Part shown: one piece after another, positions 2,088-63,541 of the stretch
How the letters are laid out: every line of letters begins with the position of its first letter
Numbering within the stretch: the stretch's first letter is position 1
Assembly (NCBI GenBank): GCA_001769505.1
Contig: MEOF01000052.1
Span: forward strand, 13,557-77,556
Length of the DNA: 64,000 bases
Direction of reading: 5' to 3'
DNA from: Bacteroidetes bacterium GWF2_33_38
GTDB lineage: Bacteria; Bacteroidota; Bacteroidia; Bacteroidales; GWF2-33-38
Made by a program: the position numbers and the translations under genes
Notes under the pieces: generated by a model
What the model saw: only the letters and a program-made list of their open reading frames with translations
The model's database searches: none
Told to the model about the DNA's origin: nothing

Positions 2088-4481
2088 CTAAAATTGGATT
2101 CGATATAAAAACATTGGAAAAAAACCTGTTTGGTAATCATAATTAACCGTTTGGTTTCTTGGATTGTATGTTTGTCGGTATATGTTTTTATTGTCAGTAA
2201 CATTTTGCAAATCAATAGCCCATTCTTGATTAAATTTTTTCTTGTTCATTTTAAAACCAATTCTTAAATCAGCTCTAAAATAATCTTCAAATCTATTTTC
2301 AAAAGCCGAAGACCAATTATATTGAGCCTGATTAACAGCTGCCGAAGCCTCAATATCTATCGGAATATATCGCTTACCTCCTGCATAAACGCCCTTTACA
2401 TCAATCGTTAACGAATTATTTCCAATTTTAAATTCATATCCTGCAAGAGCATTGTAAACAAAGTTTCCATTAAAGGCAGTATTTCGTTCGACTCCATCAA
2501 ATCCTGAATATTTCGATTCAAATAATGAAGCTGTCATTAAGAAATAATATCCTTTGCTGAAAAATTTTTCAAAGGTAAATTCAATTCCATAATTTTTACC
2601 TGTTCCTTCGTTTACCAAGCTATCGTAAGTCGATGAGTAAAAATCGTCGCCTGAATTCAAAATTGAATAGGCAAAATTCGATTCAACTACCGGAACATCG
2701 AATAAATATTGATAATACAATTCTGATTTGAATCGGACATTTTCAGAAAATAGTTTTTCGTACGCAAGAACAAGCTGATGCGATTTATAGGTTTTTACAT
2801 CTTTATTTGTGTACAAAATATCATCGTTTTCAAGTTTGGTTTGTAAAAAATAAAAATGTCGAGCCAACATTTGACTATGTAGTCCATATCCTAAACTAAT
2901 CGATTGCGTGTTGGTAATATTATATTTTAATCCCAATCGAGGCTCTGCTGTAACTTCGTTGTTAATTTTAATCATTTGAGAATACAAACCCGAGTTGAGC
3001 ATCAAATTGTCAGAAAAATTATGTTGCCATTGCACGTAAGCTCGAATAATTGATAGGCTTCCCTCTACATTAAAACTATTAACATCTGTATTTATTGAAA
3101 AAACCGTATCGTTATTTTTTAAACTATACAAATCGAAGTACGCTCCGATATTCAAATTGTTTTTTGAATCAAATTTGGTTTTTAAATGAGTTGATACAGA
3201 ATATTTTATTTCGTTATAACTCGAACGATAAAATTTGTACCCCGAACCTTCGATGACTGTTCCTGCAGAATCAAAACGTAATGAATCGACTTGTGTTGAA
3301 GAAGAGTTTCCCTGTACAGCAAGAATTGTTTTGATACGAGTTTTGGTATTAAAAAAATACAAATGAGTTAATCCGACAACTCCGGTATTTGAACCAAATT
3401 TAACATCTGTTCCTAGTAAATTGTAACCCGATTCATCGTCGGTATCGGCATCAACATTTTCGCTATCGTTAAGTTCAATGTAACTAATTCCGCCTAATCC
3501 GATTAAGGAAAATTTACCGATTTTTGTTTTAGCAAAATCTAATTTAAAAGTCAAATCCTGATATTGCGGAATTGCAGAACCTGCACCGAAATTTAAGCCC
3601 ATTGCACTCATCACTCCCAACGTTGAATATCTATAATTTGCTAAATACGATGAGTTGTGTTTGTCGGAAAAAGGTCCTTCGGCTCCCAATTCAAAACCGT
3701 TAAACCCTATTTGCCCAACGTATTCGCGTTTGTAAGTATTTCCTGCTCTCATATTCAAATCGAAAACTCCCGATATTGCATTTCCGTATTCGGCAGGAAA
3801 TGCTCCAGTAAAAAAATCAGAGTTTGTAAGCAAATTATTGTTAAGCATGCTTACCGGACCTCCCGTTGTGCCGGCAGCTCCGAAATGGTTTGGGTTGGGA
3901 ATTTCAACTCCATCGAGTCGCCAAAGCAAACCTGATGGAGAGTTTCCTCTAATAATTATATCGTTTCGAGTATCGCTAACCATCGAAACACCTGCATAAT
4001 TTGCAGCCATTCTCGAAGGGTCGCCCAAACTTCCTGCAAATCGTTCGGTTTCTTCAACTGTAAATGTTCGAGCACTTACGGTTGCCATTTTATTGAGAGC
4101 TTCGTGTTTTCTTCCGCTTGCCGAAATTACAACTTCATCAGTCTGAATCACATTTTCAATAAGCTGTACATTTATTACAATTTCTTTCCCCGAACTCACA
4201 TTCAAATTGTTAACCAAAAAGGTTTTAAAACCCATGTACGAAACCTGTATAGCCTGCCTTCCGATTGGGACATTTTGCAATATAAATTCTCCGTTTATAT
4301 CCGAAATTGTTCCATTTACCGGATTCGACTCTAATAAAACTACACTTGCTCCGGGAATCGGTATTTGCGAATATTTATCAATCACCGTTCCTCTAATGTT
4401 TTGCATAATATCTTGAGCAAAAGCTATCGAAAGGCTTGCTGTCAATAATAAAGTTATCGTTAACGTCTTTTTTAAGTTCAT
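2088..4481 (-). CDS. TonB-dependent receptor-like outer-membrane protein with N-terminal CarboxypepD_reg domain
   Basis: Signal peptide, then a carboxypeptidase-regulatory-like domain (IRGTVIDKYSQIPIPGASVVL), then a plug-like region (IIIRGNSPSGLLWRLDGVEIPNPNHF). The long beta-barrel part ends in an aromatic residue (..YRIQF). Confidence 0.75.
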   Translation of the reverse strand: MNLKKTLTITLLLTASLSIAFAQDIMQNIRGTVIDKYSQIPIPGASVVLLESNPVNGTISDINGEFILQNVPIGRQAIQVSYMGFKTFLVNNLNVSSGKEIVINVQLIENVIQTDEVVISASGRKHEALNKMATVSARTFTVEETERFAGSLGDPSRMAANYAGVSMVSDTRNDIIIRGNSPSGLLWRLDGVEIPNPNHFGAAGTTGGPVSMLNNNLLTNSDFFTGAFPAEYGNAISGVFDLNMRAGNTYKREYVGQIGFNGFELGAEGPFSDKHNSSYLANYRYSTLGVMSAMGLNFGAGSAIPQYQDLTFKLDFAKTKIGKFSLIGLGGISYIELNDSENVDADTDDESGYNLLGTDVKFGSNTGVVGLTHLYFFNTKTRIKTILAVQGNSSSTQVDSLRFDSAGTVIEGSGYKFYRSSYNEIKYSVSTHLKTKFDSKNNLNIGAYFDLYSLKNNDTVFSINTDVNSFNVEGSLSIIRAYVQWQHNFSDNLMLNSGLYSQMIKINNEVTAEPRLGLKYNITNTQSISLGYGLHSQMLARHFYFLQTKLENDDILYTNKDVKTYKSHQLVLAYEKLFSENVRFKSELYYQYLFDVPVVESNFAYSILNSGDDFYSSTYDSLVNEGTGKNYGIEFTFEKFFSKGYYFLMTASLFESKYSGFDGVERNTAFNGNFVYNALAGYEFKIGNNSLTIDVKGVYAGGKRYIPIDIEASAAVNQAQYNWSSAFENRFEDYFRADLRIGFKMNKKKFNQEWAIDLQNVTDNKNIYRQTYNPRNQTVNYDYQTGFFPMFLYRIQF

Positions 4482-4689
4482 AAAGTTTATCTAGTTTATA
4501 AAGTCCATAAAGTTTTTAAAGTAGAAAGAAAAGAGATTAGAAGTTGGACGTTAGATGGGCTCGAGTAGCTTGGACATTCTTGTCCGAGAAAATTTATTCG
4601 TGAATGCGATAAGTTATTCAAGTTCATAAAGTCCATAAAATTTGTAAAGTTTTTAAATCTGGGGGATTATATAATTTCAATTTCTAAAA

Positions 4690-5067
4690 TTAAATAGTTT
4701 TTTCGTCTGTGCAAAGTTTAGCCTTTTTATACTTTTTTGCAATAATAAAAATACCTATTGCATAAAGAGCAATGTTAAATATTCCTATCGAGAATACTCC
4801 AATTGAGAATATTCCTGCCGAAAATATTCCTATTGAGAACATTCCTGCCGAAAAAACACCAATACTAAAATCACCGGCTGCGAAAAAGCCCATCGAAAAC
4901 CGACCTGCACTAAAAATTTCATAATGGTTAAAATGTAAAATTCCAGCTACTAAAATTAACACTAAAGCTGTTCCTAAAATCCAAAAATTTGTTTTCATAA
5001 TTCGTTTGTTTTTTTTGATTAATAAAAATTTGTTTCTGCAATGATACGAGCTAAAAAATCGTTGCAA
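4690..5067 (-). CDS. small membrane protein with tandem G-x-F-S-x pentapeptide repeats; likely true start at the internal Met (MKTNFW.., about nt 4998)
   Basis: The sequence FSAGRFSMGFFAAGDFSIGVFSAGMFSIGIFSAGIFSIGVFSIGIF is encoded by 15-nt tandem DNA repeats. No family recognised. Confidence 0.45.
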   Translation of the reverse strand: MQRFFSSYHCRNKFLLIKKNKRIMKTNFWILGTALVLILVAGILHFNHYEIFSAGRFSMGFFAAGDFSIGVFSAGMFSIGIFSAGIFSIGVFSIGIFNIALYAIGIFIIAKKYKKAKLCTDEKTI

Positions 5068-5147
5068 AAATTTATGTGATTACGAACTATAAAATGTGAT
5101 AACAAACTAGCTTGTGTTGCGATTAGCAAGATTTTGTGACGAAATGC

Positions 5148-5200
5148 AAGCCGTTTTATTTAAAATTTGCCACGAAATTTCGAGAAACTGGAACTAAAAT
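5148..5200. repeat. left copy of a 53-nt imperfect direct repeat bracketing the cas12a locus; a pseudo-3' end of a LytTR gene
   Basis: aagccgttttatttaaaatttgccacgaaatttcgagaaactggaactaaaat matches 10348-10400 at 46/53 positions. On the minus strand it reads VPVSRNFVANFK*, versus the genuine LytTR C-terminus VPVSRNYVVNFK*. Confidence 0.85.
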
Positions 5201-5270
5201 ATCTTTAGAAGCAAAGCTTTAGAAAAAGATAAAAAGCAATACTCTACCAATAATGTTAGAAGCAAATATT

Positions 5271-5336
5271 AGAAGCAAAGCTTTTTGAAAAAGCTTTGCT
5301 TCTTTTTGCTTCTTTTCACCAAAAAGCGTTGCTTTT
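5271..5336. repeat. REP-like unit 1: perfect 16-1-16 palindrome agaagcaaagcttttt-g-aaaaagctttgcttct plus a conserved tail
   Basis: Palindrome at 5271-5303. The tail ..tgcttctt..ccaaaaagcgttgctt is shared with the unit at 5748-5828. Degenerate half-copies lie at 5207-5240 and 5257-5267. Confidence 0.8.
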
Positions 5337-5623
5337 TTTACCAATAGTAGAAATTTTAAAAAACGATTTGACAAACAACTATGCTTTGATTCCCAAGGCT
5401 ATCTACAATAGTAGAAATTTTTAAAAACGATTTGACCGTCAATTGTCATTTCTGTATTTTAAATCTACAATAGTAGAAATTTTTAAAAACGATTTGACGT
5501 ATTTTATCTCTATTCTAAGCTCGTATCTACAATAGTAGAAATTTTTAAAAACGATTTGACACAAATATTTCTTGAAAGGCACTACCAATCTACAATAGTA
5601 GAAATTTTAAAAGCCGATTTGAC
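5337..5623 (-). CRISPR. type V-A CRISPR array: 5 repeats of 36 nt and 4 spacers (26-28 nt), transcribed on the minus strand
   Basis: Repeats lie at 5337-5372 (degenerate), 5401-5436, 5463-5498, 5525-5560 and 5588-5623 (3 substitutions). The minus-strand consensus GTCAAATCGTTTTTAAAAATTTCTACTATTGTAGAT ends in the canonical Cas12a handle AATTTCTAC-TATT-GTAGAT. Confidence 0.95.
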
Positions 5624-5650
5624 TCTATGGTCAAAACCAGCACAAGCAAA

Positions 5651-5665
5651 GGTACAAAATATAAG
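5651..5665 (-). promoter_or_regulatory. candidate CRISPR leader promoter (near-consensus Bacteroidota -7 box)
   Basis: The minus strand reads cttaTATATTTTGtacc about 30 nt upstream of the first repeat. It is close to, but not exactly, TAnnTTTG. Confidence 0.25.
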
Positions 5666-5747
5666 GGTTTTTCAAACAAATAATGAAAACTATTTTACCC
5701 CACCTCGTAAAAAAAAAATACAACTATTTCAAATAACTAATTGTTTT

Positions 5748-5828
5748 AGAAGCAAAGCTTTTTAAAAAAGCTTTGCTTCTTTGTGCTTCTTATTGTTTCT
5801 TTTCTCCAAAAAGCGTTGCTTCTTGCTT
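5748..5828. repeat. REP-like unit 2: palindrome agaagcaaagcttttt-a-aaaaagctttgcttct plus a conserved tail
   Basis: Palindrome at 5748-5780. The tail aligns with unit 1 apart from a roughly 13-nt indel. It sits between the RAYT stop and the CRISPR leader. Confidence 0.8.
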
Positions 5829-5839
5829 CAATAAAGCAT

Positions 5840-6430
5840 CTAATCAAAAGAGAATTGTTTAATTAATTCAAACGAAATTTTTTTCTTATGAAAAAATATG
5901 AAATTTTCTTTGTTATCGAACCATTCTATTACCGCTTGTCGTTGCAAATTCGATGGTTTATCGCTCAAAATGCTATTGTAGCTACTCCACTTGTATGCCC
6001 TAAAATCGTTAACATAACCATGGAGTTGTGGATTAGCATGAATATAAAAGACAAGGTTTGTAAAATATTCATTCGTATATATTTCTATTCTTTTGAAAGG
6101 ATTTTCAAATAAACTACCATGCCTACTTTGTTGTTTATTTGTAGCTTTAGAATAACTTGTAAAAAAACGATGAAATGCTTGACTTGGCTTTTCTAAAAGC
6201 TTTGCTTTTTGTAAAAGCAAAGCTTTTTCTTTCACACGTATCAACAAATGAAAATGATTTGGTAATAAACAATATGCAAATGTTTCGACATAATCAGATA
6301 AATATTCGTTATACCGATTGAGAAAAAAGATGTAATTAAGTTCGTTAAAAAATATTTTATCGGAATTATTTCCTCGATTAAAAATATGATAATATTTCCC
6401 TTCTTCGAGTTCTAGTTGATGCTTTTTCAT
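5840..6430 (-). CDS. IS200/RAYT-like Y1 HUH transposase (REP-associated tyrosine transposase-like)
   Basis: HUH motif LLPNHFHLLIRV and C-terminal Tyr motif FYIHANPQLHGYV..WSSY, typical of COG1943/Y1_Tnp proteins. The gene is flanked on both sides by the same REP-like palindrome. Confidence 0.8.
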   Translation of the reverse strand: MKKHQLELEEGKYYHIFNRGNNSDKIFFNELNYIFFLNRYNEYLSDYVETFAYCLLPNHFHLLIRVKEKALLLQKAKLLEKPSQAFHRFFTSYSKATNKQQSRHGSLFENPFKRIEIYTNEYFTNLVFYIHANPQLHGYVNDFRAYKWSSYNSILSDKPSNLQRQAVIEWFDNKENFIFFHKKKISFELIKQFSFD

Positions 6431-6446
6431 GTTTTATTCAGTTTAT

Positions 6447-6479
6447 AGAAGCAAAGCTTTTTGAAAAAGCTTTGCTTCT
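6447..6479. repeat. REP-like palindrome 3 (identical to 5271-5303), in the 63-bp gap between the cas12a stop and the RAYT start
   Basis: agaagcaaagctttttgaaaaagctttgcttct, with perfect 16-bp arms. Confidence 0.85.
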
Positions 6480-6493
6480 TATGTCATTACCTC

Positions 6494-9400
6494 TTATTTT
6501 AGGTTTTGCACAAAACTTAACCATTCTTTGTTGCTAATTGCAAGTTTTATTTTTTTCAAATCATCGGCTTTTTTAATTTGTTGCACACACCACAAACCTT
6601 TCAATGCAATGTGAAAAGCTCCGTTTGCATCGGCATCTTTTGGCAAATTTGGCATTGCATTTCGGCTATCGTAAAAAACTCCGTTTTTTGCTACTGGCGA
6701 AAGTATAAAATCAATATCGGTTCCCGATTTCGATTGCCGCAACATAAGTGTTAAAGCCAAATAATGTAAAAGTTTCGAAAACAATTGTTTATCGTCTTGC
6801 AAAAGCAATTCGGTTTTTAAATTTTTTCCATTTTTATATTCAATTTTAAATTTATCAAAAATCAATTTCAATTCATTTGTTACATTCACTTCGTCGCTTG
6901 CTTTGGTTTGTGGATTGTAGCGGTAGCGAACGTCGCTGTGTGTGCAAACTGTCCATTTTGTTTGGCTTCCTTCAGCTTTTTCGGTAAATTTTTTATAGTC
7001 GAATTCAAATTCAAAATAATTTTTATCGGCATTAAATTTTATACTTTCAAATTTTTCGAAAAACAATTTTGCTTTTTCAACACTTTCGTATTTGGGTTTC
7101 AAAAAATCGACAAAACCTGTTGCTGGGTCAATTTTGCTTGTGTTCCAAGCCGGAACATAAAACAAAAATCCGCTTTGTTTTCCCATTTTCTCGAAACTTT
7201 CAAATTTGTTAGTCAATTGCAAAGCATTTAAAACTCCTGCGGTTTCGTTTACATCATTATTTTTGAAAACCAAATAATTGAGTTTTTCAATCAACATTTT
7301 TTCAAGTTTTTGGTAAACTTGTCGTTCCACTTTTTGTCTGCCACGCATAAAACCTGCGTTTAAATCTTCCATAACCACAATTGCGTTTTCGTCAACCATC
7401 ATTGTTGCAATTTGATGCACAACTTGGCTCAAATATCCTTCTTTGAGTTCTTTTATGGTTTCAATTGTTTTCCAATCTTGACGAGCGTTTGCTCGTTCAT
7501 TTTCTTTGTTTACCAACAAATTTTTATAATCGGTTTCGTGTTCTTGGCTTGTTGCAATTACGTTTAACGATTGTTGTTTCAACAATTCGCCTTTTTGATT
7601 TATAAGTGTGAGATAAATCAAATGTCGTTCGCCACGGTCTAAACCAATAATTTTAACATCCGAATTCGATTTCAAATATTCGTTCACTTTTGTATTCAAA
7701 TATTCGTTTCCTTCGGCTTTAAAATTCAACGTTATTGGAACGTGAAATTGAAATTTATCTAATGTAAAACGCTTATCTTTAATTAAATCGTAATTAAACG
7801 AACTTTGTTTTTTATTGTTTAGTGGATTTTTATTGTCAATTGCTTGATTTGCTTTGTGAATAATTCTATCAGTTTGTTTTATTGACGATTGTCTGAAAAA
7901 AACTTCGGCTTCTCCGTTCAATTTATAAACCACGTTTTGCAAATTTTGCTCGTCAAACAACATTTTCCAATACAAAGTGTGCATATTTGGTTTTCCTTTG
8001 CTGAAAGGCGAAAAATCTTTATTATAGATTTGAAATAAATACAATTTTCCTTCGTCAACTAATTGATTTATATATGTTTCGTCGAGTTTTGTGAAAGTTA
8101 ATTTATAACCTTGTTTTTCAACTTCTTTGTAAAACTCGCTTAAATCGTTGTACGTTTCAGTTTTCGAAAATTGATGATTAAAATGTTTCCAATCGGTATG
8201 TTTTGCTATTGATTGTTTGAAAAAATCAATCAAATTTTCCATATCTTTTCTAACAAAAGCATCGCCTTTTTTGTGCGTTTCTTTTTGATATTTACTTTGT
8301 ATTTCGGCTGATGGTTGAAAACTTTCAATTCCTTTTGCTGATAAAAATACTTTTGGTAACATTTTATTTGCTCCTGGCAATAATTTGTAATTCATTTTTT
8401 CAAAAGCCGTTTCTTCGTTTTTGCAAACAGGAACATTTCTTTCGAAAATTCGATTGTTCGATTTTGACATAATTCCCAAATAAAACAAACCATTTTTTCT
8501 GAAAATTACGCTTGTGTTAACGGGTTCTTTGTTTACATCCCAACCATTTAGCAATGTGCTATTTTCAAAATTTAGTTTTATTTTTTCGGTGCTGTAAGCT
8601 TTTTGAGTTAAGTAATTTCTTACTTTATTATAAATTGAAATTGTTTGGCTCAAATGTTCAAATAAAGCAGTAAATAAACTGTAAAAAAGTTCGTCTTTTT
8701 CTTTGTCTTTATCTTTTAAACTCAAAGGTTTGAGAAAATGAATTAAATTTAAAATGCTATCCAAAAAATCTTTTATTTGCGAAACTTGTTCTTTTTGATT
8801 TCCCAATTTTATATTTTCGGGATATGGTTCGTTCAATAAATCTTTAATTACTACATAATTATGATGAATTTTTTGAAGCAAATCAATTTTGTTGTCTTTG
8901 TCCAAACCAAGTTTTGCAAAATATTCACTAACAATATTTTTGTTGTTTTTTTCTTTAATTATTTCACTATCACATTCATTTAATGCGGTTTGTATAGTTT
9001 CAATATTGAAATCTTGTTTTAACCATTTTGCTTTACGTTCGTCGTATTTTTCTTGTTTTTCTTTTGATGAAATTGGATTTTGTTTTTCATAATAATCGTT
9101 CAAAGCTGATGAAATTATGCTCCAATCACCAAATAATTTTTGTGAAATATCGGTCAACGAAGTATCATTTCTTAAATAAATTTTAGATAAATCGAATGTT
9201 TTTAAACCAATAATTAAATTTTTGATTGCTTCAAAAATGTTTGTAGTGTGTCCATCGTCTTCGTAGTTACACAAAACGCTACTATAAAATTGTTCAATAT
9301 TTTCGAGTAATTGAGCATCGGTTTCAAAAGTTTCAGCAACAAAAGAAACGCTATGTCTGTCGCTTAAAATTTGCTTGTAAAGTTGTTTGAATTTTGCTTG

Positions 9401-10240
9401 TTTTTTCTTTTTGTCGGTTTGTTTTTGGTTATAATCGGTATTTATATATTCGTTTAAACCTTTAATTTTTGTTTTTCCTTCATCGGCAGTTCTTCCACCA
9501 ATAACAATGTTGTAAAGTTCAATTCCTGTTTGTGTAAGTGTTTGGTTAAAAAAACTTAATGAGAAAATTTCGTCTAAAGTTTTTCCTTGCACAATTTCTT
9601 CCATTTCAACAAGTGTTTTGTTCAAATCTGAAATTAATTCGGGAGCATCTTTTTTAATTTTTTCATAAATTTTCAAATTATCTATAAACTTTGGCAAGTT
9701 TTCGTTAACCAAACGATATGCAATTGCGGTCGCTTTTTCATCGGCAACATACATATTTCGTCTATTTTGGTGAAAACCCGTGAAATAGGTTGTGAAATCT
9801 TTGAATTCGTTTACTAATTCTTTTTGTTCGTCGTCAACAAAATTTAATAAATCTTGTTTTATCAATTCTTTTGCAAAAAGGTTTTTAAAACGTTCTTTAA
9901 TTTCATCATTTGGATTTTTTGCAAAAGCATCAGCAATTTGTTTACGGAGTGAATTGCGAATGTTATCAAATTCTTTTTTATCGGTATCGTCTTTTTCTTT
10001 TTTGTTGAATATCGTTTCGTAAGTTTCTAAACCGTGCAATTTAAAATCGCATAAAACCATTTCAATGAAATATTTATGATATTCATCAATAATTTTCTTT
10101 ACTTTTTTATAACTAACAGCTCTTTCATTGTCTTTTTCAATTAATCCATTTATTTCAATAAATTCTTTAGTTTTTCCTTGTGGAATTAGCTCAAAACGTA
10201 AAGTTTTCGATAATGAAAATTGATTTGTAAATTGTTTCAT
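6494..10240 (-). CDS. cas12a: Cas12a (Cpf1), type V-A CRISPR effector nuclease
   Basis: 1248 aa with the hallmark N-terminus FTNQFSLSKTLRFELIPQGKT. RuvC-I IIGLDRGERHLIY, RuvC-II IVVMEDLNAGFMRGR and RuvC-III KDADANGAFHIALKGLW all retain their acidic catalytic residues. A cognate array lies downstream on the same strand. Confidence 0.97.
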   Translation of the reverse strand: MKQFTNQFSLSKTLRFELIPQGKTKEFIEINGLIEKDNERAVSYKKVKKIIDEYHKYFIEMVLCDFKLHGLETYETIFNKKEKDDTDKKEFDNIRNSLRKQIADAFAKNPNDEIKERFKNLFAKELIKQDLLNFVDDEQKELVNEFKDFTTYFTGFHQNRRNMYVADEKATAIAYRLVNENLPKFIDNLKIYEKIKKDAPELISDLNKTLVEMEEIVQGKTLDEIFSLSFFNQTLTQTGIELYNIVIGGRTADEGKTKIKGLNEYINTDYNQKQTDKKKKQAKFKQLYKQILSDRHSVSFVAETFETDAQLLENIEQFYSSVLCNYEDDGHTTNIFEAIKNLIIGLKTFDLSKIYLRNDTSLTDISQKLFGDWSIISSALNDYYEKQNPISSKEKQEKYDERKAKWLKQDFNIETIQTALNECDSEIIKEKNNKNIVSEYFAKLGLDKDNKIDLLQKIHHNYVVIKDLLNEPYPENIKLGNQKEQVSQIKDFLDSILNLIHFLKPLSLKDKDKEKDELFYSLFTALFEHLSQTISIYNKVRNYLTQKAYSTEKIKLNFENSTLLNGWDVNKEPVNTSVIFRKNGLFYLGIMSKSNNRIFERNVPVCKNEETAFEKMNYKLLPGANKMLPKVFLSAKGIESFQPSAEIQSKYQKETHKKGDAFVRKDMENLIDFFKQSIAKHTDWKHFNHQFSKTETYNDLSEFYKEVEKQGYKLTFTKLDETYINQLVDEGKLYLFQIYNKDFSPFSKGKPNMHTLYWKMLFDEQNLQNVVYKLNGEAEVFFRQSSIKQTDRIIHKANQAIDNKNPLNNKKQSSFNYDLIKDKRFTLDKFQFHVPITLNFKAEGNEYLNTKVNEYLKSNSDVKIIGLDRGERHLIYLTLINQKGELLKQQSLNVIATSQEHETDYKNLLVNKENERANARQDWKTIETIKELKEGYLSQVVHQIATMMVDENAIVVMEDLNAGFMRGRQKVERQVYQKLEKMLIEKLNYLVFKNNDVNETAGVLNALQLTNKFESFEKMGKQSGFLFYVPAWNTSKIDPATGFVDFLKPKYESVEKAKLFFEKFESIKFNADKNYFEFEFDYKKFTEKAEGSQTKWTVCTHSDVRYRYNPQTKASDEVNVTNELKLIFDKFKIEYKNGKNLKTELLLQDDKQLFSKLLHYLALTLMLRQSKSGTDIDFILSPVAKNGVFYDSRNAMPNLPKDADANGAFHIALKGLWCVQQIKKADDLKKIKLAISNKEWLSFVQNLK

Positions 10241-10347
10241 GTGGTTTATGTATTTTTTCTCATAAAGTTAGAAAAATACATACAAGCAAAAAAACTTTTA
10301 AGCAATATTTTATGATTGCGTTAATTGTTGTCCATTTATATTAGGAG

Positions 10348-10400
10348 AAGCCGTTTTATTTGAAATTTACGACGTAATTTCGAGAAACGGGAACTACGAT
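10348..10400. repeat. right copy of the 53-nt direct repeat (the genuine 3' end of the LytTR gene plus 8 nt beyond its stop)
   Basis: aagccgttttatttgaaatttacgacgtaatttcgagaaacgggaactacgat, offset exactly 5,200 bp from the left copy. Confidence 0.85.
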
Positions 10401-11192
10401 TTCGGTATTTTTGAAAAATAATTGAATCCCCTGCGAATTTCCGGTTGATTTTTCGATTAAATCTGTATTTGCGATGAATGAGCGATGAACTTTTACAAAG
10501 TTTTTGTGCTTAGAGAGCAGTGTTTCTATTTCTTTAAGTGTAGCTCTAATTATTTTCTTAGCTGTTTTGCTCTCATTAAAATAATTTATCTCAACATAAT
10601 TTCCCTGCGACATTATACATATAATATTCGACGAAGATATTGATATCATATCATTTCCAACATTCGATGTAAAAGTTATTATTTCTGATGAGTTTTGTTG
10701 AATATGGTTTTGTTGAATAGTGTCAAGAGCTGTTGTATTCTTCTTCAATTCGTTAACATAGCCCACATAAACGAAAAAGATTGTCGGAAAAAGTCCGATT
10801 GTAAATGTTGAAATCAGAAAATACAGAAACGAACCAAGTGTTAATTTAAAGTTTGCAATAAAAATCGAAGAATACAAAACATTCATGCAAGCAATCAAGG
10901 TAATTAAACCCGTAATGGTTAAGATGCTTGATAATAAAGTAACATTTTTAATTTCGACGAATTTATACTTAAAAATAAGTACCCATATAGATTGATAAAT
11001 TATGTATGTAACAAAAGTAACAAAACCAAATCCAAGTGATTGAAAAAAAAGATTTTCGAGTTCATTTATTCCAAAAGGTTTAAAAATAAATAAGAACATA
11101 AAAATAAATATTCCCAACAAAAATGCAGGAATAATTTTTACACGTTCAAACGCGACAGGTGCAGGTTGCTTTAATAATTTGATAATATTCAT
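10356..11192 (-). CDS. membrane-anchored LytTR DNA-binding domain protein
   Basis: N-terminal half has 4-5 TM helices. The C-terminal LytTR domain reads ..NYVEINYFNE..FVKVHRSFIANTDLI.. Confidence 0.75.
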   Translation of the reverse strand: MNIIKLLKQPAPVAFERVKIIPAFLLGIFIFMFLFIFKPFGINELENLFFQSLGFGFVTFVTYIIYQSIWVLIFKYKFVEIKNVTLLSSILTITGLITLIACMNVLYSSIFIANFKLTLGSFLYFLISTFTIGLFPTIFFVYVGYVNELKKNTTALDTIQQNHIQQNSSEIITFTSNVGNDMISISSSNIICIMSQGNYVEINYFNESKTAKKIIRATLKEIETLLSKHKNFVKVHRSFIANTDLIEKSTGNSQGIQLFFKNTEIVVPVSRNYVVNFK

Positions 11193-11243: not shown

Positions 11244-12092
11244 CTATTTCTTTTTCTTCGAACGTTTTACAAGCTTCAAAATAACATAAAGAGTTATCCC
11301 AAGAATTAACCATAATGGCCACAAATAAAAGATTCCGATTATAAAAATTATCAAGCCACTCCAACCCGACGAAATAGCATCGCCTAATTTTGAAAAGAAA
11401 CTTGGCTCGTTATAATTGTAGTCGTTGTACTGATTTACCGTTAAATTTATAGTACTATATCCAACCTGATTATTCAAAAATTTAAGTCGGCCTTCGGCAG
11501 CGTCAATTTCTTCACGTATTTGTTTGATTTTGTACTCAACTTCAAGTATTTCGCTTATGGTGTTGGCTTTTTTCAAAATCTCGTAATATCGTGTTTCTAT
11601 TTCCTTTTTAGCTTTTAATCGTGCTTCAATATCAACAAACTCTTCGGTAACGTCGGTTAGTGATACACTTTTTTGTATTACTTTTTTCACATCAACAATA
11701 AGCGTATCGAGCAAATTGTCAAATTTTTCGCTGGCAACTCGTATCGTTAAGCTATTTGAAATCAAATACGATGTATTATTTTCAACTTCGCTCGAAACAT
11801 ATGCGTTGTAGATTCTCAATCGTTTCTTAATTTCCGAAATCGAAGCATCGTAGTCCGCCACTTCAACAGATACGTTTGCTGTCTTGATTATTTTTTCAGC
11901 TATTTTATCTTTTGCCAAATCGTCGATTGATTTTGGAGTTTCCGCCTCTGTATATTCCTCAACATTAGCAGATTTTGCTGTCTGCTCAAATTCCACAGCA
12001 CCGTCAGCCATCATCTGAACATTGTCGCTCATTTGACTGCACGACATTAGCGTAAGCACCAAAAATACGAGTAAATATAAGTTTTGTCTCAT
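11244..12092 (-). CDS. DUF4349-like lipoprotein with coiled-coil region and C-terminal TM helices
   Basis: Lipoprotein signal (..LMSCSQ), coiled-coil segment and two C-terminal TM helices. The family assignment is by recall. Confidence 0.45.
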   Translation of the reverse strand: MRQNLYLLVFLVLTLMSCSQMSDNVQMMADGAVEFEQTAKSANVEEYTEAETPKSIDDLAKDKIAEKIIKTANVSVEVADYDASISEIKKRLRIYNAYVSSEVENNTSYLISNSLTIRVASEKFDNLLDTLIVDVKKVIQKSVSLTDVTEEFVDIEARLKAKKEIETRYYEILKKANTISEILEVEYKIKQIREEIDAAEGRLKFLNNQVGYSTINLTVNQYNDYNYNEPSFFSKLGDAISSGWSGLIIFIIGIFYLWPLWLILGITLYVILKLVKRSKKKK

Positions 12093-58672: not shown

Positions 58673-59083
58673 ATGTCAAATTTTATTACAAGCATTTTAT
58701 TCGCTAAATCAATAAAAAAGCACAAAAATCAGTTGCAAAAATTAAATTCTCAAGTAGCTACTTTAAAAGATGATAGCAAAAAACTTTATGATAAAACTCA
58801 AGAAGTATTATTAGATATTGAATGTCCTAAGAATCTTTTGGCAGAGAATTCGACAACACATACTCTACTTGGAATTGAAAAAGATAAAAATGAGAACAAT
58901 GTCTTTGTTTTCATTAATGATAAATCTCTTTTTAAGAAATACTATAGTTCTGGAATTAATCACTTTGACATAGAATGCTACATTTCAGATAAAAGAGAAT
59001 ATCTTAATCGTCGCAGAGTACTTCATCTCATGGGAAAGTATAAAACTGAAAAGGAGATATTTGATTTACCTCACAATCACTAA
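58673..59083 (+). CDS. hypothetical protein (last gene of the island)
   Basis: 136 aa. Its last 6 codons and stop overlap the 3' end of the convergent T9SS gene. No family recognised. Confidence 0.35.
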   Translation: MSNFITSILFAKSIKKHKNQLQKLNSQVATLKDDSKKLYDKTQEVLLDIECPKNLLAENSTTHTLLGIEKDKNENNVFVFINDKSLFKKYYSSGINHFDIECYISDKREYLNRRRVLHLMGKYKTEKEIFDLPHNH

Positions 59084-60862
59084 CTTACCACCATCGGTCA
59101 ACTCTCCATTATTAACTATTTTATAATAATAAATTCCTTGCTTTAAAGCTGAAATGTCTATTAACTGTTTTTCTGTTTTTAGCTCTGTGGTTAATACTTC
59201 TTTGCCAAACAAATCATACACTTCGACTACGCTCAGTGTCCGATTATCGTTTGCCGGATACTGATTACTGATTATCGTTAACTGCTCACTTGCAGGATTC
59301 GGATAAATCGTAAATCGCAAATCGTAATTCGTAATTTCTTTAGTGCTTACATCCAAAAATACCGTAATCGTATAATACGCCGTATCGCTGCAATAATCAT
59401 TATTTGTAATTAGCTGTACTGTTTTAATTCCGGTGTGTGTGTAGCTGTGCTGTGGAAACTGCTCTGTACTTGTGATTGTATCGCCAAAATCCCATTGCCA
59501 GTTTGTGCCGAAGTTACTTATTATGCCAAATTGTACTGTTGCCCCTTCGGTTAAATAAACTGTATCGGAATCTGCTGTTATTTCTGAATTTACTGTATAG
59601 CAGCTATACGACCAGCAACCTTCATAAGTTGTAGTATCAATAGTGCAGGTATTACCCATACTATCGGTTTTTAGCAACCATAAATCGTTTTTGGCAGGAA
59701 GTGAATTATTTATTATGTAGCCTGTGGCGATAAACCCACCATCGTTGGTAAGATTTAAATCTTCTACATAGGTCTGTTTTGTACCACCATAGTAATTGAA
59801 ACTTTTTGACCAAAGAGTATCCCCTTGCATGTTAAATTTTAAAAGCCATACACGGCGACCATTTGGTGTGCCTGATAAATCTGCTTTACCTCCTGCTACA
59901 ATATAAGAACCGTCTGATAACTGACGCACTATTTTAAAATATTCATTTAATCCTGTTGCTCCAAATGTTTTACTCCATTGCTGATTACCAGAACTGTCGG
60001 TTTTTACAATATATCCGTTGTAATAATTATCTGTCATTTTTTTGTCCCCTACAATTATATATCCTTTATCAGATGTAGCAATTGTAAAACCACGATATTC
60101 TTCTGCTGTTGTACCAAATGATTTTTTCCATTCCTGATTTCCCAAACTATCGGTTTTTAACAGGAACATATCATTTGAACTTGTTGAAGGGTTATAATAA
60201 TCGCCCCCAATTATAAATCCTCCATCGGCGGTTAAATCTATTGATTTCAGATTATCATTGTAATTGGCTGCTCCGTATTCTCTTTGCCATTGTATATTGC
60301 CGAGACTGTCAGTTTTTATTAGAAAAACATTTGAATAAGTTTGAGTTGCATCTAAATTAATTCCACCAATAATAAAACCCCCATCGGAGGTTTGTTTGTG
60401 CATAAATCCGTGGTCGCTAACTCCACCTTCTATTGTTTTAAAAGTTACTGAATCGCCATTTTCATTTAATGTAAATAAAAAAGTATCTGTATCTATATTT
60501 ACAGTATCAGGAATATCCCCACAAACAGAATAATAATTATTTGGTAATTGAATTATACTATATCCATCTTCACCATAACCTTGATACCAATCATACATTT
60601 TTGTCCATGTTGTATCTCCTTTTAAATCAATTTTGACAAAAAGTATTGCATAATAGTCGCCATAAATAATTCCAGACGATATATAACCACTATCTGAAGT
60701 TTGAATTATTGACCAGCCTCCATTAACTTGATTATTATAATCAACAAGCCGATGAAAGGCATATTGTGATTTACTTATATTTACTATTGTAAAAAACAAT
60801 ATTAAAATTACTAAAGATTTTTTCATAAAATATTGAATTAAGAAAGGTAGCTTTATTTTCAT
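59066..60862 (-). CDS. T9SS cargo protein, paralog 1: beta-propeller-like repeats + PKD-like domain + CTD
   Basis: ~50-aa repeats (..DGGFIIGG.....LLKTDSLGNxxW..), a PKD-like segment (WQWDFGDTITSTEQFPQHSYTHTG) and a CTD (IYPNPASEQLTI..VYDLFGKEV..GIYYYKI). Confidence 0.75.
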   Translation of the reverse strand: MKIKLPFLIQYFMKKSLVILILFFTIVNISKSQYAFHRLVDYNNQVNGGWSIIQTSDSGYISSGIIYGDYYAILFVKIDLKGDTTWTKMYDWYQGYGEDGYSIIQLPNNYYSVCGDIPDTVNIDTDTFLFTLNENGDSVTFKTIEGGVSDHGFMHKQTSDGGFIIGGINLDATQTYSNVFLIKTDSLGNIQWQREYGAANYNDNLKSIDLTADGGFIIGGDYYNPSTSSNDMFLLKTDSLGNQEWKKSFGTTAEEYRGFTIATSDKGYIIVGDKKMTDNYYNGYIVKTDSSGNQQWSKTFGATGLNEYFKIVRQLSDGSYIVAGGKADLSGTPNGRRVWLLKFNMQGDTLWSKSFNYYGGTKQTYVEDLNLTNDGGFIATGYIINNSLPAKNDLWLLKTDSMGNTCTIDTTTYEGCWSYSCYTVNSEITADSDTVYLTEGATVQFGIISNFGTNWQWDFGDTITSTEQFPQHSYTHTGIKTVQLITNNDYCSDTAYYTITVFLDVSTKEITNYDLRFTIYPNPASEQLTIISNQYPANDNRTLSVVEVYDLFGKEVLTTELKTEKQLIDISALKQGIYYYKIVNNGELTDGGKLVIVR

Positions 60863-60878
60863 AAAGCTACCTTAAAAT

Positions 60879-61760
60879 TTATTTAATAATTACAAACTGA
60901 TTCTGATACACTATAACATTATTATCTTTCACAACATAATGATAAACTCCATTTTCTAACTCCTTAGTTTTGATTACAATTTTATTATCATTACCTGTCA
61001 GAGTATGCTCAAATACTTTTCTACTAATATTATCATATATTTCAATAATACTTCCTGCATAATTACTCGCATTATATTCAAATACAATATTGTCTGAGGC
61101 AGGATTAGGGTAAAGATTAAATTCATTACTATTGTAATAAACATTGTTTGTTGACAGAGTATTGTTATTTACTTTTAAGCTGCGTACTGTTGCTGTATTA
61201 AATTTCAAAACAGGGTATTCAAATTGCTCGTCAAACACCGTTTCCAAAACAGCCAAAGCACTAAACGCAGTTGCAGTATTTCCAGATGCAATTGTTCTGA
61301 TAGCTTGTTCCTGTTCCTGTGTCAATTCAAATATTGTTTTGTTCTGTTCTGCCAAATTAATCAATATTGTCATATATTCATAATATGCAACAGCATCTTC
61401 TACCTTTTCGCTTTCTGCTGTATTCAATACTTCTACCAAAGCATCGGCACAGGCTGCATAATCATTATTCGACAGGTAAATTTCTGACAATAGTTTTTTA
61501 TCTTCGTAATTATCCGAAGTAATTAAAATACTCATTGCCTGTGCCGAATCACCATTAGTAAAGTAATAATCTACAGCAAAGTTATTCAATTGATTTATCT
61601 GTGCTTCATTATAAGCTATTTCTTTTTCGAGTGTTTCTCGTGCAGAGACTCCAATTGTCTGAACCACTGATTTACAAAGTTGATTTGTCTGATTTGCATG
61701 ATTTATACCATACAACCATACCATTATACACAAAATGATCATAGTTTTCATAAAAATCAT
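60879..61760 (-). CDS. T9SS-CTD protein, paralog 1 of the partner gene
   Basis: Helical N-terminal half. CTD reads LYPNPASDNIVFEY..IEIYDNISRKV..NGVYHYVV. Confidence 0.65.
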   Translation of the reverse strand: MIFMKTMIILCIMVWLYGINHANQTNQLCKSVVQTIGVSARETLEKEIAYNEAQINQLNNFAVDYYFTNGDSAQAMSILITSDNYEDKKLLSEIYLSNNDYAACADALVEVLNTAESEKVEDAVAYYEYMTILINLAEQNKTIFELTQEQEQAIRTIASGNTATAFSALAVLETVFDEQFEYPVLKFNTATVRSLKVNNNTLSTNNVYYNSNEFNLYPNPASDNIVFEYNASNYAGSIIEIYDNISRKVFEHTLTGNDNKIVIKTKELENGVYHYVVKDNNVIVYQNQFVIIK

Positions 61761-61780
61761 TCAAAAATCAGCGGTAAAGA

Positions 61781-63541
61781 CTACCTCACAATCACTAACT
61801 TACCACCATCGGTCAACTCTCCATTATTAACTATTTTATAATAATAAATTCCTTGCTTTAAAGCTGAAATGTCTATTAACTGTTTTTCTGTTATTAGTTC
61901 GGTTGTTAATACTTCTTTTCCAAACAAATTGTAAATTATTAGATTGCTTCGTGCCTCGCAATGACGTGCTGATGGGCTGCATGTTACCGTTAACTGCTCA
62001 CTTGCAGGATTCGGAAAAATTGTAAAATGGGCGTTTCGGCTACGCTCAACGACCATTTGAGAGCTTACATCCAAAAATACCGTAATTGTATAATACGCCG
62101 TATCACTGCAATAATCATTATTGGTGATTAGCTGCACGGTTTTAGTCCCGGTGTGTGTGTAGCTGTGCTGTGGAAACTGCTCTGTACTTGTGATTGTATC
62201 GCCAAAATCCCATTGCCAGCTTGTGCCAAAGTTACTAATTGTACCAAATTGTACTGTTGCTCCTTGTGTTAAGTAAACTGTATCGGAATCGGCTGTTATT
62301 TCTGAATTTACTGTATAGCAGCTATACGACCAGCAACCTTCATAAGTTGTAGTATCAATAGTGCAGGTATTACCCATACTATCGGTTTTTAAAAGCCACA
62401 AATCGTTTTTGGCAGGTAATGAGTTATTTATAATATAGCCTGTGGCTATAAATCCGCCATCGTTGGTGAGGTTTAAGTCTTCCATATAGGTATGTTTTGA
62501 ACCTCCATAGTAGTTATAAGTTTTTGACCATACTGTATCTCCTTGCTGATTGAGCTTTAATAACCATGCTTTCACTCCATTAGGTGTACCTGACAAATCA
62601 GGTTTCGTACCGCCTATAATATATGAACCATCAGGTAATTGACGCACCTGGTGAAAATAATCATTAACTCCTGGAGTATTTATTATTTTACTCCATTGTG
62701 TATTTCCTAAACTGTCTGTTTTTATAATATAGCCGTTAAATGTATTATCTGTTGTTTTTCTGCCTCCTACAATAATAAAACCTTTATCTAATGTTGATAT
62801 TGCAAATCCATCTCCTTCATCTACTGTAGTGCCGTAAGATTTTTCCCATTCCTGATTACCAAGACTATCAGTCTTTAACAAGAACATATCATACGAATTT
62901 GTTGACGGGTTTTCAAAATCACCACCAATTATATAGCCTCCATCGGGTGTTAAATCAATAGATTTTAGATAATCGTTATAGTTTGCTGCTCCGTATTCTT
63001 GTTGCCATTGTATATTTCCTAAACTATCAGCTTTTATTAAAAAAACCTGTGTATAGGTTGCTGTTGTATCATAATTGTAGCCACCAATTATAAAACCACC
63101 ATCTGTGGTTTGTTTGTGCATAATATGTCTGTCGTTAAAGCCCTCGTCAATTGGTTTTAACCATTCAACACTACCATTATTATCTAATTTTAATAAAAAC
63201 CCACTGGACGCTCCTTCTGTTGAATCAGCGGCAAATCCACTTATAATAAAGCTACCATCGCTTTTCTGAATAACTGATTTAGGTATATCTCCACCAACAG
63301 TGTAGAAATCGTGCATTATTGACCATGTTGTATCTCCATATTCATTTAATTTCAATATGTACATACCATCATAGTTTTCTAATGAACTACCTACAACAAT
63401 AAAAGTATTGTCTGATGCTTGAATAACTGAACGACCAGCATCATAAAAATAATTCTCAAACCCATACAATTTATGAAATGTAAATTGGGCACTACTAACC
63501 TTAAAAAAAGAAAGCAATAATATACAAAAAATAATTCTCAT
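61781..63541 (-). CDS. T9SS cargo protein, paralog 2 (beta-propeller-like repeats + PKD-like + CTD)
   Basis: Same architecture as 59066-60862. The C-terminal ~200 aa are nearly identical and the N-terminal half is diverged. Confidence 0.75.
   Translation of the reverse strand: MRIIFCILLLSFFKVSSAQFTFHKLYGFENYFYDAGRSVIQASDNTFIVVGSSLENYDGMYILKLNEYGDTTWSIMHDFYTVGGDIPKSVIQKSDGSFIISGFAADSTEGASSGFLLKLDNNGSVEWLKPIDEGFNDRHIMHKQTTDGGFIIGGYNYDTTATYTQVFLIKADSLGNIQWQQEYGAANYNDYLKSIDLTPDGGYIIGGDFENPSTNSYDMFLLKTDSLGNQEWEKSYGTTVDEGDGFAISTLDKGFIIVGGRKTTDNTFNGYIIKTDSLGNTQWSKIINTPGVNDYFHQVRQLPDGSYIIGGTKPDLSGTPNGVKAWLLKLNQQGDTVWSKTYNYYGGSKHTYMEDLNLTNDGGFIATGYIINNSLPAKNDLWLLKTDSMGNTCTIDTTTYEGCWSYSCYTVNSEITADSDTVYLTQGATVQFGTISNFGTSWQWDFGDTITSTEQFPQHSYTHTGTKTVQLITNNDYCSDTAYYTITVFLDVSSQMVVERSRNAHFTIFPNPASEQLTVTCSPSARHCEARSNLIIYNLFGKEVLTTELITEKQLIDISALKQGIYYYKIVNNGELTDGGKLVIVR

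Follow-up and report, generated by a model that had tools for sequence, protein, structure and literature searches.

A compact type V-A CRISPR-Cas12a locus (CRISPR, clustered regularly interspaced short palindromic repeats) in the genome of Bacteroidetes bacterium GWF2_33_38 lies between two 56-nt direct repeats, each of which carries the 3′ end of a gene for a LytTR-domain membrane protein. The locus was analyzed within a stretch of 64,000 nt (contig MEOF01000052.1, positions 13,557-77,556; assembly GCA_001769505.1), hereafter the window, and coordinates without a prefix refer to this stretch. The repeat copy on the gene-body side completes the LytTR gene, the other copy is an orphan without a gene body, the 5,144 nt between them contain no integrase gene, and three related metagenome contigs carry the empty site. 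We conclude that a horizontally acquired minimal type V-A module was probably inserted within the last 48 nt of the LytTR gene, leaving 56 bp of the target on both sides. For a whole CRISPR-Cas12a locus, this provides an insertion scar resolved to the base pair, together with empty sites to compare, and would mean that a housekeeping region can receive a class 2 CRISPR module that brings no integrase or transposase of its own.

The original prediction, made by a model from the letters alone, had placed imperfect 53-nt direct repeats, 5,200 bp apart, around the locus. The left and right 53-mers are indeed identical at 46/53 positions in direct orientation, and ungapped extension lengthened the pair to 56 nt (5148-5203 versus 10348-10403; 48/56 identical, 86%; start-to-start spacing 5,200 bp), with fully identical blocks of 14 and 13 nt. 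The similarity is significant against the AT-rich background, a point on which the prediction had asked for a formal check: the best other match of the left 53-mer in the window was 30/53 (plus strand) or 32/53 (minus strand), and in 200 random 64-kb sequences from a Markov-1 model the best match averaged 30.2 and was 34 at most. A degenerate 41-nt pattern is found at these two sites only in the window, with 0 expected. When all 53-nt segments of the window were compared with each other, the only pairs with ≥44/53 identities were the repeat pair, duplications inside the insert that are related to repetitive extragenic palindromic (REP) sequences, and an unrelated tandem gene pair at 59-64 kb. 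Since six independent contigs, at ≥99.986% identity, read through both junctions, the repeat structure is not an assembly artifact or a chimera.

The two copies differ in what lies behind them. The right copy consists of the last 15 codons and the stop codon of the 278-aa LytTR gene plus 8 nt, and is thus the genuine 3′ end of the gene at 10356-11192, as predicted. Just upstream of the left copy on the minus strand there are a stop codon and unrelated sequence, which agrees with its description as an orphan gene end. The gene, the two copies and the adjoining native region are as follows.

10356-11192, minus strand: gene for a LytTR-domain membrane protein, 278 aa (Pfam LytTR, E=1.8e-12), of equal length in three empty-site relatives
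10348-10403, minus strand: right repeat copy, the working LytTR 3′ end, encoding EIVVPVSRNYVVNFK and the stop codon, plus 8 nt
5148-5203, minus strand: left repeat copy, the orphaned LytTR 3′ end, encoding DILVPVSRNFVANFK and the stop codon, plus 8 nt past the stop, without a gene body
4999-5147, minus strand: native intergenic region from the old LytTR stop codon to the pentapeptide-repeat gene, colinear with the contigs L010, L011 and L137

The claim that the module was inserted at the 3′ end of the LytTR gene called for relatives with an empty site, and these were found in the three metagenome contigs L010, L011 and L137, each of which has one LytTR gene and no insert; a scan of genome contigs with the LytTR protein gave no matches. 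L010 and L011 carry the two closest relatives of the LytTR protein (56% and 54% identical), and in both the gene for a TonB-dependent receptor comes directly after LytTR, with the pentapeptide-repeat gene called between them in L011. L137 was found via its TonB receptor (78% identical); its gene order, EamA-TPR-182aa-DUF4349-LytTR-pentapeptide-TonB, is the order of the window on both sides, without the insert. The left copy and about 150 nt downstream of it are colinear with the sequence that follows the LytTR stop codon in all three contigs, and the distance from this stop to the next ATG is 157 nt in the window when measured from the left copy, 157 nt in L137 and 158 nt in L011. The blocks GGCTTGCATTTCGTC.CA, CACAA.CTAGT, AATCACATAAATTT and CATTGCAGAAACAAATTT are common to the left side of the window and the three empty-site loci after the stop. 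The left copy takes the position of the relatives' LytTR stop and passes into the intergenic sequence that is conserved in them, which marks it as an orphaned gene end and not as the relic of a second paralog. The right copy tracks the relatives' LytTR genes as far as GGCTT, 8 nt past the stop, and has no counterpart thereafter, so that the insert proper spans 5204-10347 (5,144 nt). The LytTR protein has 278 aa in the window and in all three contigs, which means that the gene has been restored to the residue.

The insert holds cas12a, a Y1-type gene for a REP-associated tyrosine transposase (RAYT), a CRISPR array and REP palindromes and nothing else, in keeping with the earlier statement that only the CRISPR-Cas locus lies between the repeats. 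From the LytTR-proximal to the distal end it is organized as follows.

10241-10347, minus strand: proximal insert end, 107 nt upstream of cas12a, without a counterpart at the empty sites
6494-10240, minus strand: cas12a, 1,248 aa, with all five Cas12a Pfam domains
6447-6479, unstranded: REP palindrome between cas12a and the RAYT gene
5840-6430, minus strand: RAYT gene, 196 aa; HUH motif N58-H-F-H61 and Tyr129 in YIHANP
6195-6227: REP-like palindrome inside the RAYT open reading frame
5746-5833, unstranded: REP-containing unit between the RAYT gene and the array leader (palindrome 5748-5780)
5337-5623, minus strand: CRISPR array of 5 repeats and 4 spacers (26-28 nt); repeat GTCAAATCGTTTTTAAAAATTTCTACTATTGTAGAT with a Cas12a-type 3′ stem-loop
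5269-5346, unstranded: REP-containing unit after the array (full palindrome 5271-5303), a duplicate of 5746-5833
5204-5227, unstranded: distal insert end, a truncated REP palindrome (one arm) abutting the left copy

The effector and the array are those of a type V-A system. The Cas12a protein has the Pfam domains REC1, REC2, PI, RuvC and NUC, with E-values down to 4.6e-106. Its residues D868, E958 and D1204, which we take to be those of the three RuvC motifs, are invariant. The array repeats end in the canonical ...AATTTCTACTATTGTAGAT handle (Cas12a type TCTACT-N-GTAGAT), the last repeat (5372-5337) being degenerate, and the array is identical in all strain-level contigs. The cas4-cas1-cas2 module is absent: tblastn gave no match to any of the three genes anywhere in the 64 kb. 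The locus resembles other minimal type V-A loci in its full-length Cas12a with conserved RuvC residues, its canonical repeat and its lack of adaptation genes, and differs from them in that its insertion junctions are defined and a RAYT/REP unit lies inside it. The nearest relatives of the Cas12a protein share only 61-66% identity with it, occur in unrelated contexts and are accompanied by cas4-cas1-cas2 (L012, L014 and L016), which fits a horizontal origin followed by reduction. The insert's GC content and its GC content at third codon positions (GC3) are host-like.

None of the four spacers has an exact match in viral contigs. Homing of the module guided by CRISPR RNA was considered and rejected, since neither the insertion site nor the window nor the empty-site loci contain a match to a spacer. 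No Rfam element was found at the junctions, and a promoter and terminator scan flagged the REP hairpins only.

The RAYT gene is the only recombinase-like gene in the insert, and the original prediction had pointed to it as the HUH transposase of the locus. That part stands: the protein matches Pfam Y1_Tnp (E=0.0035) and NCBIfam REP_Tyr_transpos (E=1.9e-14, with a score of 53.7 that is below the curated cutoff of 80). It does not make a credible mobilizer of the unit. A perfect 33-nt palindrome, AGAAGCAAAGCTTTTTNAAAAAGCTTTGCTTCT, flanks the gene (6447-6479 and 5748-5780), with a third copy at 5271-5303 and a truncated one at 5204-5227; all of these cognate palindromes lie in 5204-6479, and none is near the cas12a-proximal end (10241-10347). 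The window REP was not found outside the insert, either in the 64 kb or in any fetched locus. The protein fits TnpA-REP subclass 2.4, whose members have ~194 aa, an NH[IFV]H motif, a Tyr motif YIxxNP, flanking REPs and a REP within the gene and occur in Bacteroidetes and Cyanobacteria (Quentin et al. 2018, PMC6006769). It shares with them the length (196 aa), the NHFH and YIHANP motifs, flanking and internal REPs and a Bacteroidetes host, and is unlike them in its location inside a CRISPR-Cas locus and in the restriction of its REPs to the insert across 64 kb.

We compared the gene with 35 related RAYT genes in Bacteroidota genomes, many of which have the same architecture with lineage-specific flanking and internal palindromes, and with the neighborhoods of 80 further metagenomic Cas12a loci (47-63% identical, found with a Cas12a alignment). 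No cas12a, cas1, cas2 or cas4 lies near any of the 35 RAYT genes in the fetched DNA (up to 10 kb on each side), and no RAYT gene is present at any of the 80 Cas12a loci. The only other RAYT genes linked to cas12a are those of L012 and L013, located between cas12a and cas4; their REP sequence differs from that of the window, and in a neighbor-joining tree the L012 RAYT groups with other genes and is not the sister of the window RAYT. A role of the RAYT as a conserved accessory of Cas12a was rejected on these grounds. Because the palindromes are absent from the cas12a-proximal end, the 35 RAYT loci lack cas genes and no RAYT occurs at the 80 cas12a loci, we take the RAYT to be a passenger and not the IS605-like partner of a TnpB descendant. 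Two loci nevertheless carry a RAYT gene with its own REP palindrome directly downstream of cas12a (5840-6479 in the window and L012:11773-12427), and the pattern resembles two separate arrivals at one position, above the expectation for chance adjacency. A perfect REP-like palindrome within the reading frame occurs at a similar position in many related RAYT genes (L017:270-308, L022:5248-5280, L027:10228-10318, L035:10212-10244 and L042:10258-10286), in agreement with the peculiarity published for TnpA-REP subclass 2.4 (PMC6006769).

The array and its leader are bracketed by a REP-containing direct duplication of 80-90 nt (5269-5346 and 5746-5833), 84-96% identical. It could serve as a substrate by which the array, or the missing cas4-cas1-cas2 genes, were lost or exchanged. 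As REP units are located at every module boundary and are duplicated around the array, it is reasonable to suppose that REP-mediated recombination may have caused the loss of the adaptation genes.

The insertion that we favor would have proceeded as follows. A module made up of cas12a, the four-spacer array and a hitch-hiking REP/RAYT unit, without cas4, cas1 and cas2, would have entered the LytTR gene end in a Bacteroidales lineage and left 56 bp of the target on either flank of the 5,144-nt insert. The copy on the gene-body side (10348-10403) would have completed the LytTR frame at its original length, and the other (5148-5203) would have stayed as an orphan on the native downstream regulatory region and the pentapeptide-TonB genes. 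The event was presumably independent of a recombinase; repair of a staggered break with fill-in is one possible route, and another starts from incoming DNA with a related LytTR end already in it, joined through a single crossover or by one-sided homologous recombination. The RAYT, probably carried along, may have driven internal rearrangements, including the loss of the adaptation genes.

One-sided recombination is the rival that comes closest to this insertion and may be one of its sub-mechanisms: a donor with the cassette after its LytTR gene would have used LytTR as the anchor, while the other end was joined illegitimately to the recipient at a point 48 nt ahead of its stop codon, so that the gene end of the recipient was left stranded; this account predicts a foreign right copy. 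Orphaned 3′ regions are a known outcome of such recombination in type VI secretion system (T6SS) effector and Rhs loci (PMC5361080), the right copy has four states that are absent from the left copy and both outgroups, and the differences between the copies are synonymous or conservative with frame and stop kept. The host-like GC and GC3 are also as expected of a related donor, and the truncated REP at the left junction is a plausible place for an illegitimate join. We nevertheless regard this account as doubtful, as a donor was not found, the nearest Cas12a (66% identical) is not beside a LytTR gene, the LytTR genes of all three lineages are equally divergent (47-54%) with no hint of a replaced tract, and the original insertion is merely shifted back to the donor. 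Site-specific integration by a tyrosine or serine integrase is unlikely; here a mimic of the LytTR 3′ end in attP would have been used, as by e14 and phage 21 at icd, and the integrase would have been deleted or have acted in trans. The original prediction had spoken of an att-like duplication, and some points favor it: diverged direct repeats that restore a gene 3′ end are the classic signature, seen in e14 with its 163-bp pseudo-icd′ (PMC6379469), the identical 14- and 13-nt blocks could hold the crossover, and the pattern of differences mildly favors a foreign working end. The implied site-specific recombinase is not supported. The insert is filled by cas12a, the RAYT gene, the array and REPs. 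The called genes with Pfam annotation, in a region that extends ~9 kb past the left copy on one side and ~10 kb past the LytTR gene on the other, include no integrase, and a tRNA or transfer-messenger RNA (tmRNA) gene is not present nearby. Excised circles or precise deletions were sought among strain-level contigs. Of these, 16 encode the exact LytTR protein and 11 the exact TonB receptor, and all that extend into the region carry the insert at ≥99.986% identity. Nor did the same 5.2-kb cassette turn up in another context: a LytTR gene is near none of 85 related Cas12a loci, and there are no close copies in plasmids or phages.

Two further accounts are far less probable. Mobilization of the whole cas12a-array unit by the HUH/Y1 transposase, in the manner of an IS200/IS605-like single-strand transposon, is very improbable. 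Cas12 effectors descend from TnpB genes of IS200/IS605-like elements, the HUH and Tyr motifs of the sole recombinase-like gene are intact, and a RAYT follows cas12a in L012 and L013 too. Transposases of the IS200/IS605 type are, however, not known to make target duplications. Cognate hairpins are missing from the right end of the unit, which weighs heavily against this account, the linkage does not recur, the RAYTs of the window and L012 differ in their REPs and are not sisters, and the protein fits a domesticated TnpA-REP subclass, 2.4 (PMC6006769). Hardly credible at all is the alternative offered with the original prediction, in which most of a second LytTR paralog in tandem was lost and only the left copy survived. 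A large internal deletion would be expected to leave such a gene end behind, but one LytTR gene stands at the site in all three related lineages, the left copy has the exact gene-end position with the same spacing and downstream sequence, and tblastn found no other LytTR fragment in the window.

Several observations weigh against the insertion with target duplication that we prefer. All 16 contigs with the exact LytTR protein carry the cassette, so that no polymorphism shows recent mobility, and a donor, a closer relative and an excised form were all not found in our searches. The copies are 86% identical, compared with mostly 94-100% in published cases, which are within-species comparisons; the event is accordingly old, or the copies were never identical. 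The empty-site relatives are distant, with about 77% protein identity in the conserved neighbors and 51-54% in LytTR. Finally, the polarized differences between the copies lean toward a right copy that is foreign or faster evolving, although this is suggestive only.

The last point was examined in the aligned 56 nt. The left and right copies resemble the single copy of the relatives about equally well, matching L011 at 42/56 and 43/56 positions, respectively, and L137 at 34/56 and 39/56, and are closer to each other (48/56). Four of the eight differences between them are synonymous and four are conservative (D/E, L/V, F/Y and A/V), with the frame and stop kept. When the differences were polarized with the two outgroups, the left copy matched both at 4/8 sites and the right copy at 0/8, the rest being ambiguous. 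A foreign working end is what the precedents of e14 at icd (PMC6379469) and of homology-facilitated illegitimate recombination (PMC5361080) would predict. Two of the four left-matching sites are third-position C/T differences in an AT-rich genome, and AT-biased homoplasy is likely to lie behind the polarized sites. Given the small number of sites, their nature and the fast evolution of LytTR in all lineages, the polarization is no more than suggestive. The LytTR proteins are 47-54% identical among the lineages, compared with 76-78% for EamA, TPR, the pentapeptide protein and TonB, and their divergence is about equal in all three lineages, which says little for or against a tract replaced from a donor.

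Insertion with long target duplication of restriction-modification gene units is said to have been described by Nobusato et al. in 2000. The class as defined for restriction-modification units comprises inserts of <20 kb between direct repeats of >30 bp that both align to one empty-site copy, with no other mobile element (Furuta, Abe & Kobayashi 2010, PMC2853133); in a case from H. influenzae, the 46-bp repeat overlaps the 3′ end of HI0105 by 15 bp (PMC2853133). The window locus has defense genes (cas12a and the array) in 5,144 nt, repeats of 56 nt (48/56 identical) and copies that both align to a single empty-site copy in L010, L011 and L137, which are distant relatives. As to other mobile-element genes, the insert contains no integrase, and a RAYT gene is present whose hairpins do not bound the unit. 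The likeness to the class (PMC2853133) lies in a nuclease-based defense cargo below 20 kb, repeats longer than 30 bp, the lack of an integrase and the overlap with a gene 3′ end. The window locus differs in that its cargo is Cas12a with an array instead of restriction-modification genes, that a RAYT/REP unit is aboard, that its copies are 86% identical instead of the usual ≥94%, and that its empty sites come from distant relatives and not from the same species. We read it as a case of insertion with long target duplication in which the target is a gene 3′ end and the cargo is CRISPR-Cas12a. A link between this class and CRISPR-Cas was not found in the titles or abstracts of the searched literature, in which three papers contain both terms. 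The shared footprint ties together the mobility of two nuclease-based defense systems, restriction-modification and CRISPR-Cas12a.

Two other known systems share part of the structure. The element e14 in icd of E. coli leaves a 163-bp pseudo-icd′ behind, and e14 and phage 21 at icd (PMC6379469) resemble the window locus in having repeats at a gene 3′ end, one completing the gene and the other a pseudo-end, with mostly conservative differences. The window locus likewise has direct repeats that restore the gene (278 aa), but its unit is only 5.1 kb long, contains no integrase, excisionase or phage genes, has no site-specific recombinase among the called, Pfam-annotated genes around it and shows no excision or empty-site polymorphism among the strain-level contigs. 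In T6SS effector and Rhs loci, homology-facilitated illegitimate recombination strands old 3′ regions (PMC5361080), and there too new DNA follows a conserved gene and the old 3′ region is moved downstream as an orphan. In those loci, however, a functional toxin/immunity module is displaced and arrays of orphans accumulate, whereas the window has a single 56-nt stub and a new gene end much like the old one.

The 80 surveyed Cas12a loci were also examined for similar arrangements, and a self-comparison for repeats took in 85 loci. A metagenome scan with the single Cas12a protein had given no matches. About 16/80 loci have no adaptation genes in the DNA fetched, a count for which the downstream flank was not checked locus by locus, and a LytTR gene is beside none of the 80. 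One locus, L107, has 75-nt direct repeats (5247-5321 and 11899-11973) that are 96% identical and 6,652 bp apart. One is located 55 nt upstream of cas12a, the other 170 nt past the array, and together they bracket a complete type V-A locus, cas12a-cas4-cas1-cas2 with a 10-repeat array. L107 may be a second insertion with long target duplication. The other candidates, L081, L101 and L116 and probably L115 and L117, were rejected because their repeats appear to be multi-copy or hairpin-type REP-like sequences and not target duplications, leaving only L107 as clean. The view in the original prediction that a Cas12a locus bracketed as a discrete unit is unusual was thus overstated, given the same scar at restriction-modification genes (PMC2853133) and the second bracketed locus.

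It is conceivable, though rather unlikely, that compact Cas12a modules of effector and array are recurrent integrase-free mobile cassettes with target duplications of 50-80 bp, like restriction-modification units. If this were true, the window (56 nt) and L107 (75 nt, 96%) would be two instances. Such cassettes would perhaps be driven by the double-strand-break activity of their cargo or by flanking repeats that allow loop-out and re-insertion. The interest of the window locus would rise if such scars recur around CRISPR-Cas loci.

The host population is a low-GC (32%) Bacteroidales lineage met in groundwater and other metagenomes; the 16 contigs with the exact LytTR protein include those of GCA_001769695.1 and GCA_036849775.1. 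Genes on the minus strand are ordered DUF4349, LytTR, cas12a, the 196-aa Y1/HUH gene, the CRISPR array, the pentapeptide-repeat gene and the TonB-dependent receptor gene, and thyA is located past the receptor gene on the opposite (plus) strand. The neighbors of the LytTR gene and the insert are as follows.

11244-12092, minus strand: DUF4349 gene
4690-4998, minus strand: pentapeptide-repeat gene, with the ATG at 4998
2088-4481, minus strand: TonB-dependent receptor gene

The intergenic region after LytTR (4999-5147 in the window, L011:3442-3599 and L137:5508-5664) contains near-invariant blocks although the LytTR proteins are only ~50% identical. This conservation suggests a promoter or operator for the pentapeptide-TonB genes, which would have been separated from LytTR by the insertion but left intact. 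The pentapeptide-repeat gene (4690-4998, L011:3600-3902 and L137:5665-5973) is always located between LytTR and the TonB receptor. It encodes a protein of 100-102 aa, 72-77% identical across lineages, with FS(A/I)G(I/M)-type five-residue repeats and a hydrophobic N-terminus. Between the pentapeptide and TonB receptor genes there are two clusters of 9-nt-periodic repeats (...ATAAAGTTT/ATAAAGTCC...), at 4464-4529 and 4601-4666. Short direct repeats of such size are the usual binding sites of LytTR-domain regulators, and the two clusters may be operators of the adjacent LytTR protein.

Two more features of the window lie apart from the locus. A nucleotidyltransferase/HEPN pair, a toxin-antitoxin-like defense module, is located at 546-1243, ~4 kb from the insert and adjoining thyA. 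At 59066-63541, a unit of ~2.7 kb is tandemly duplicated with blocks 73-97% identical, giving two paralogous genes of ~590 aa on the minus strand (59066-60862 and 61781-63541).

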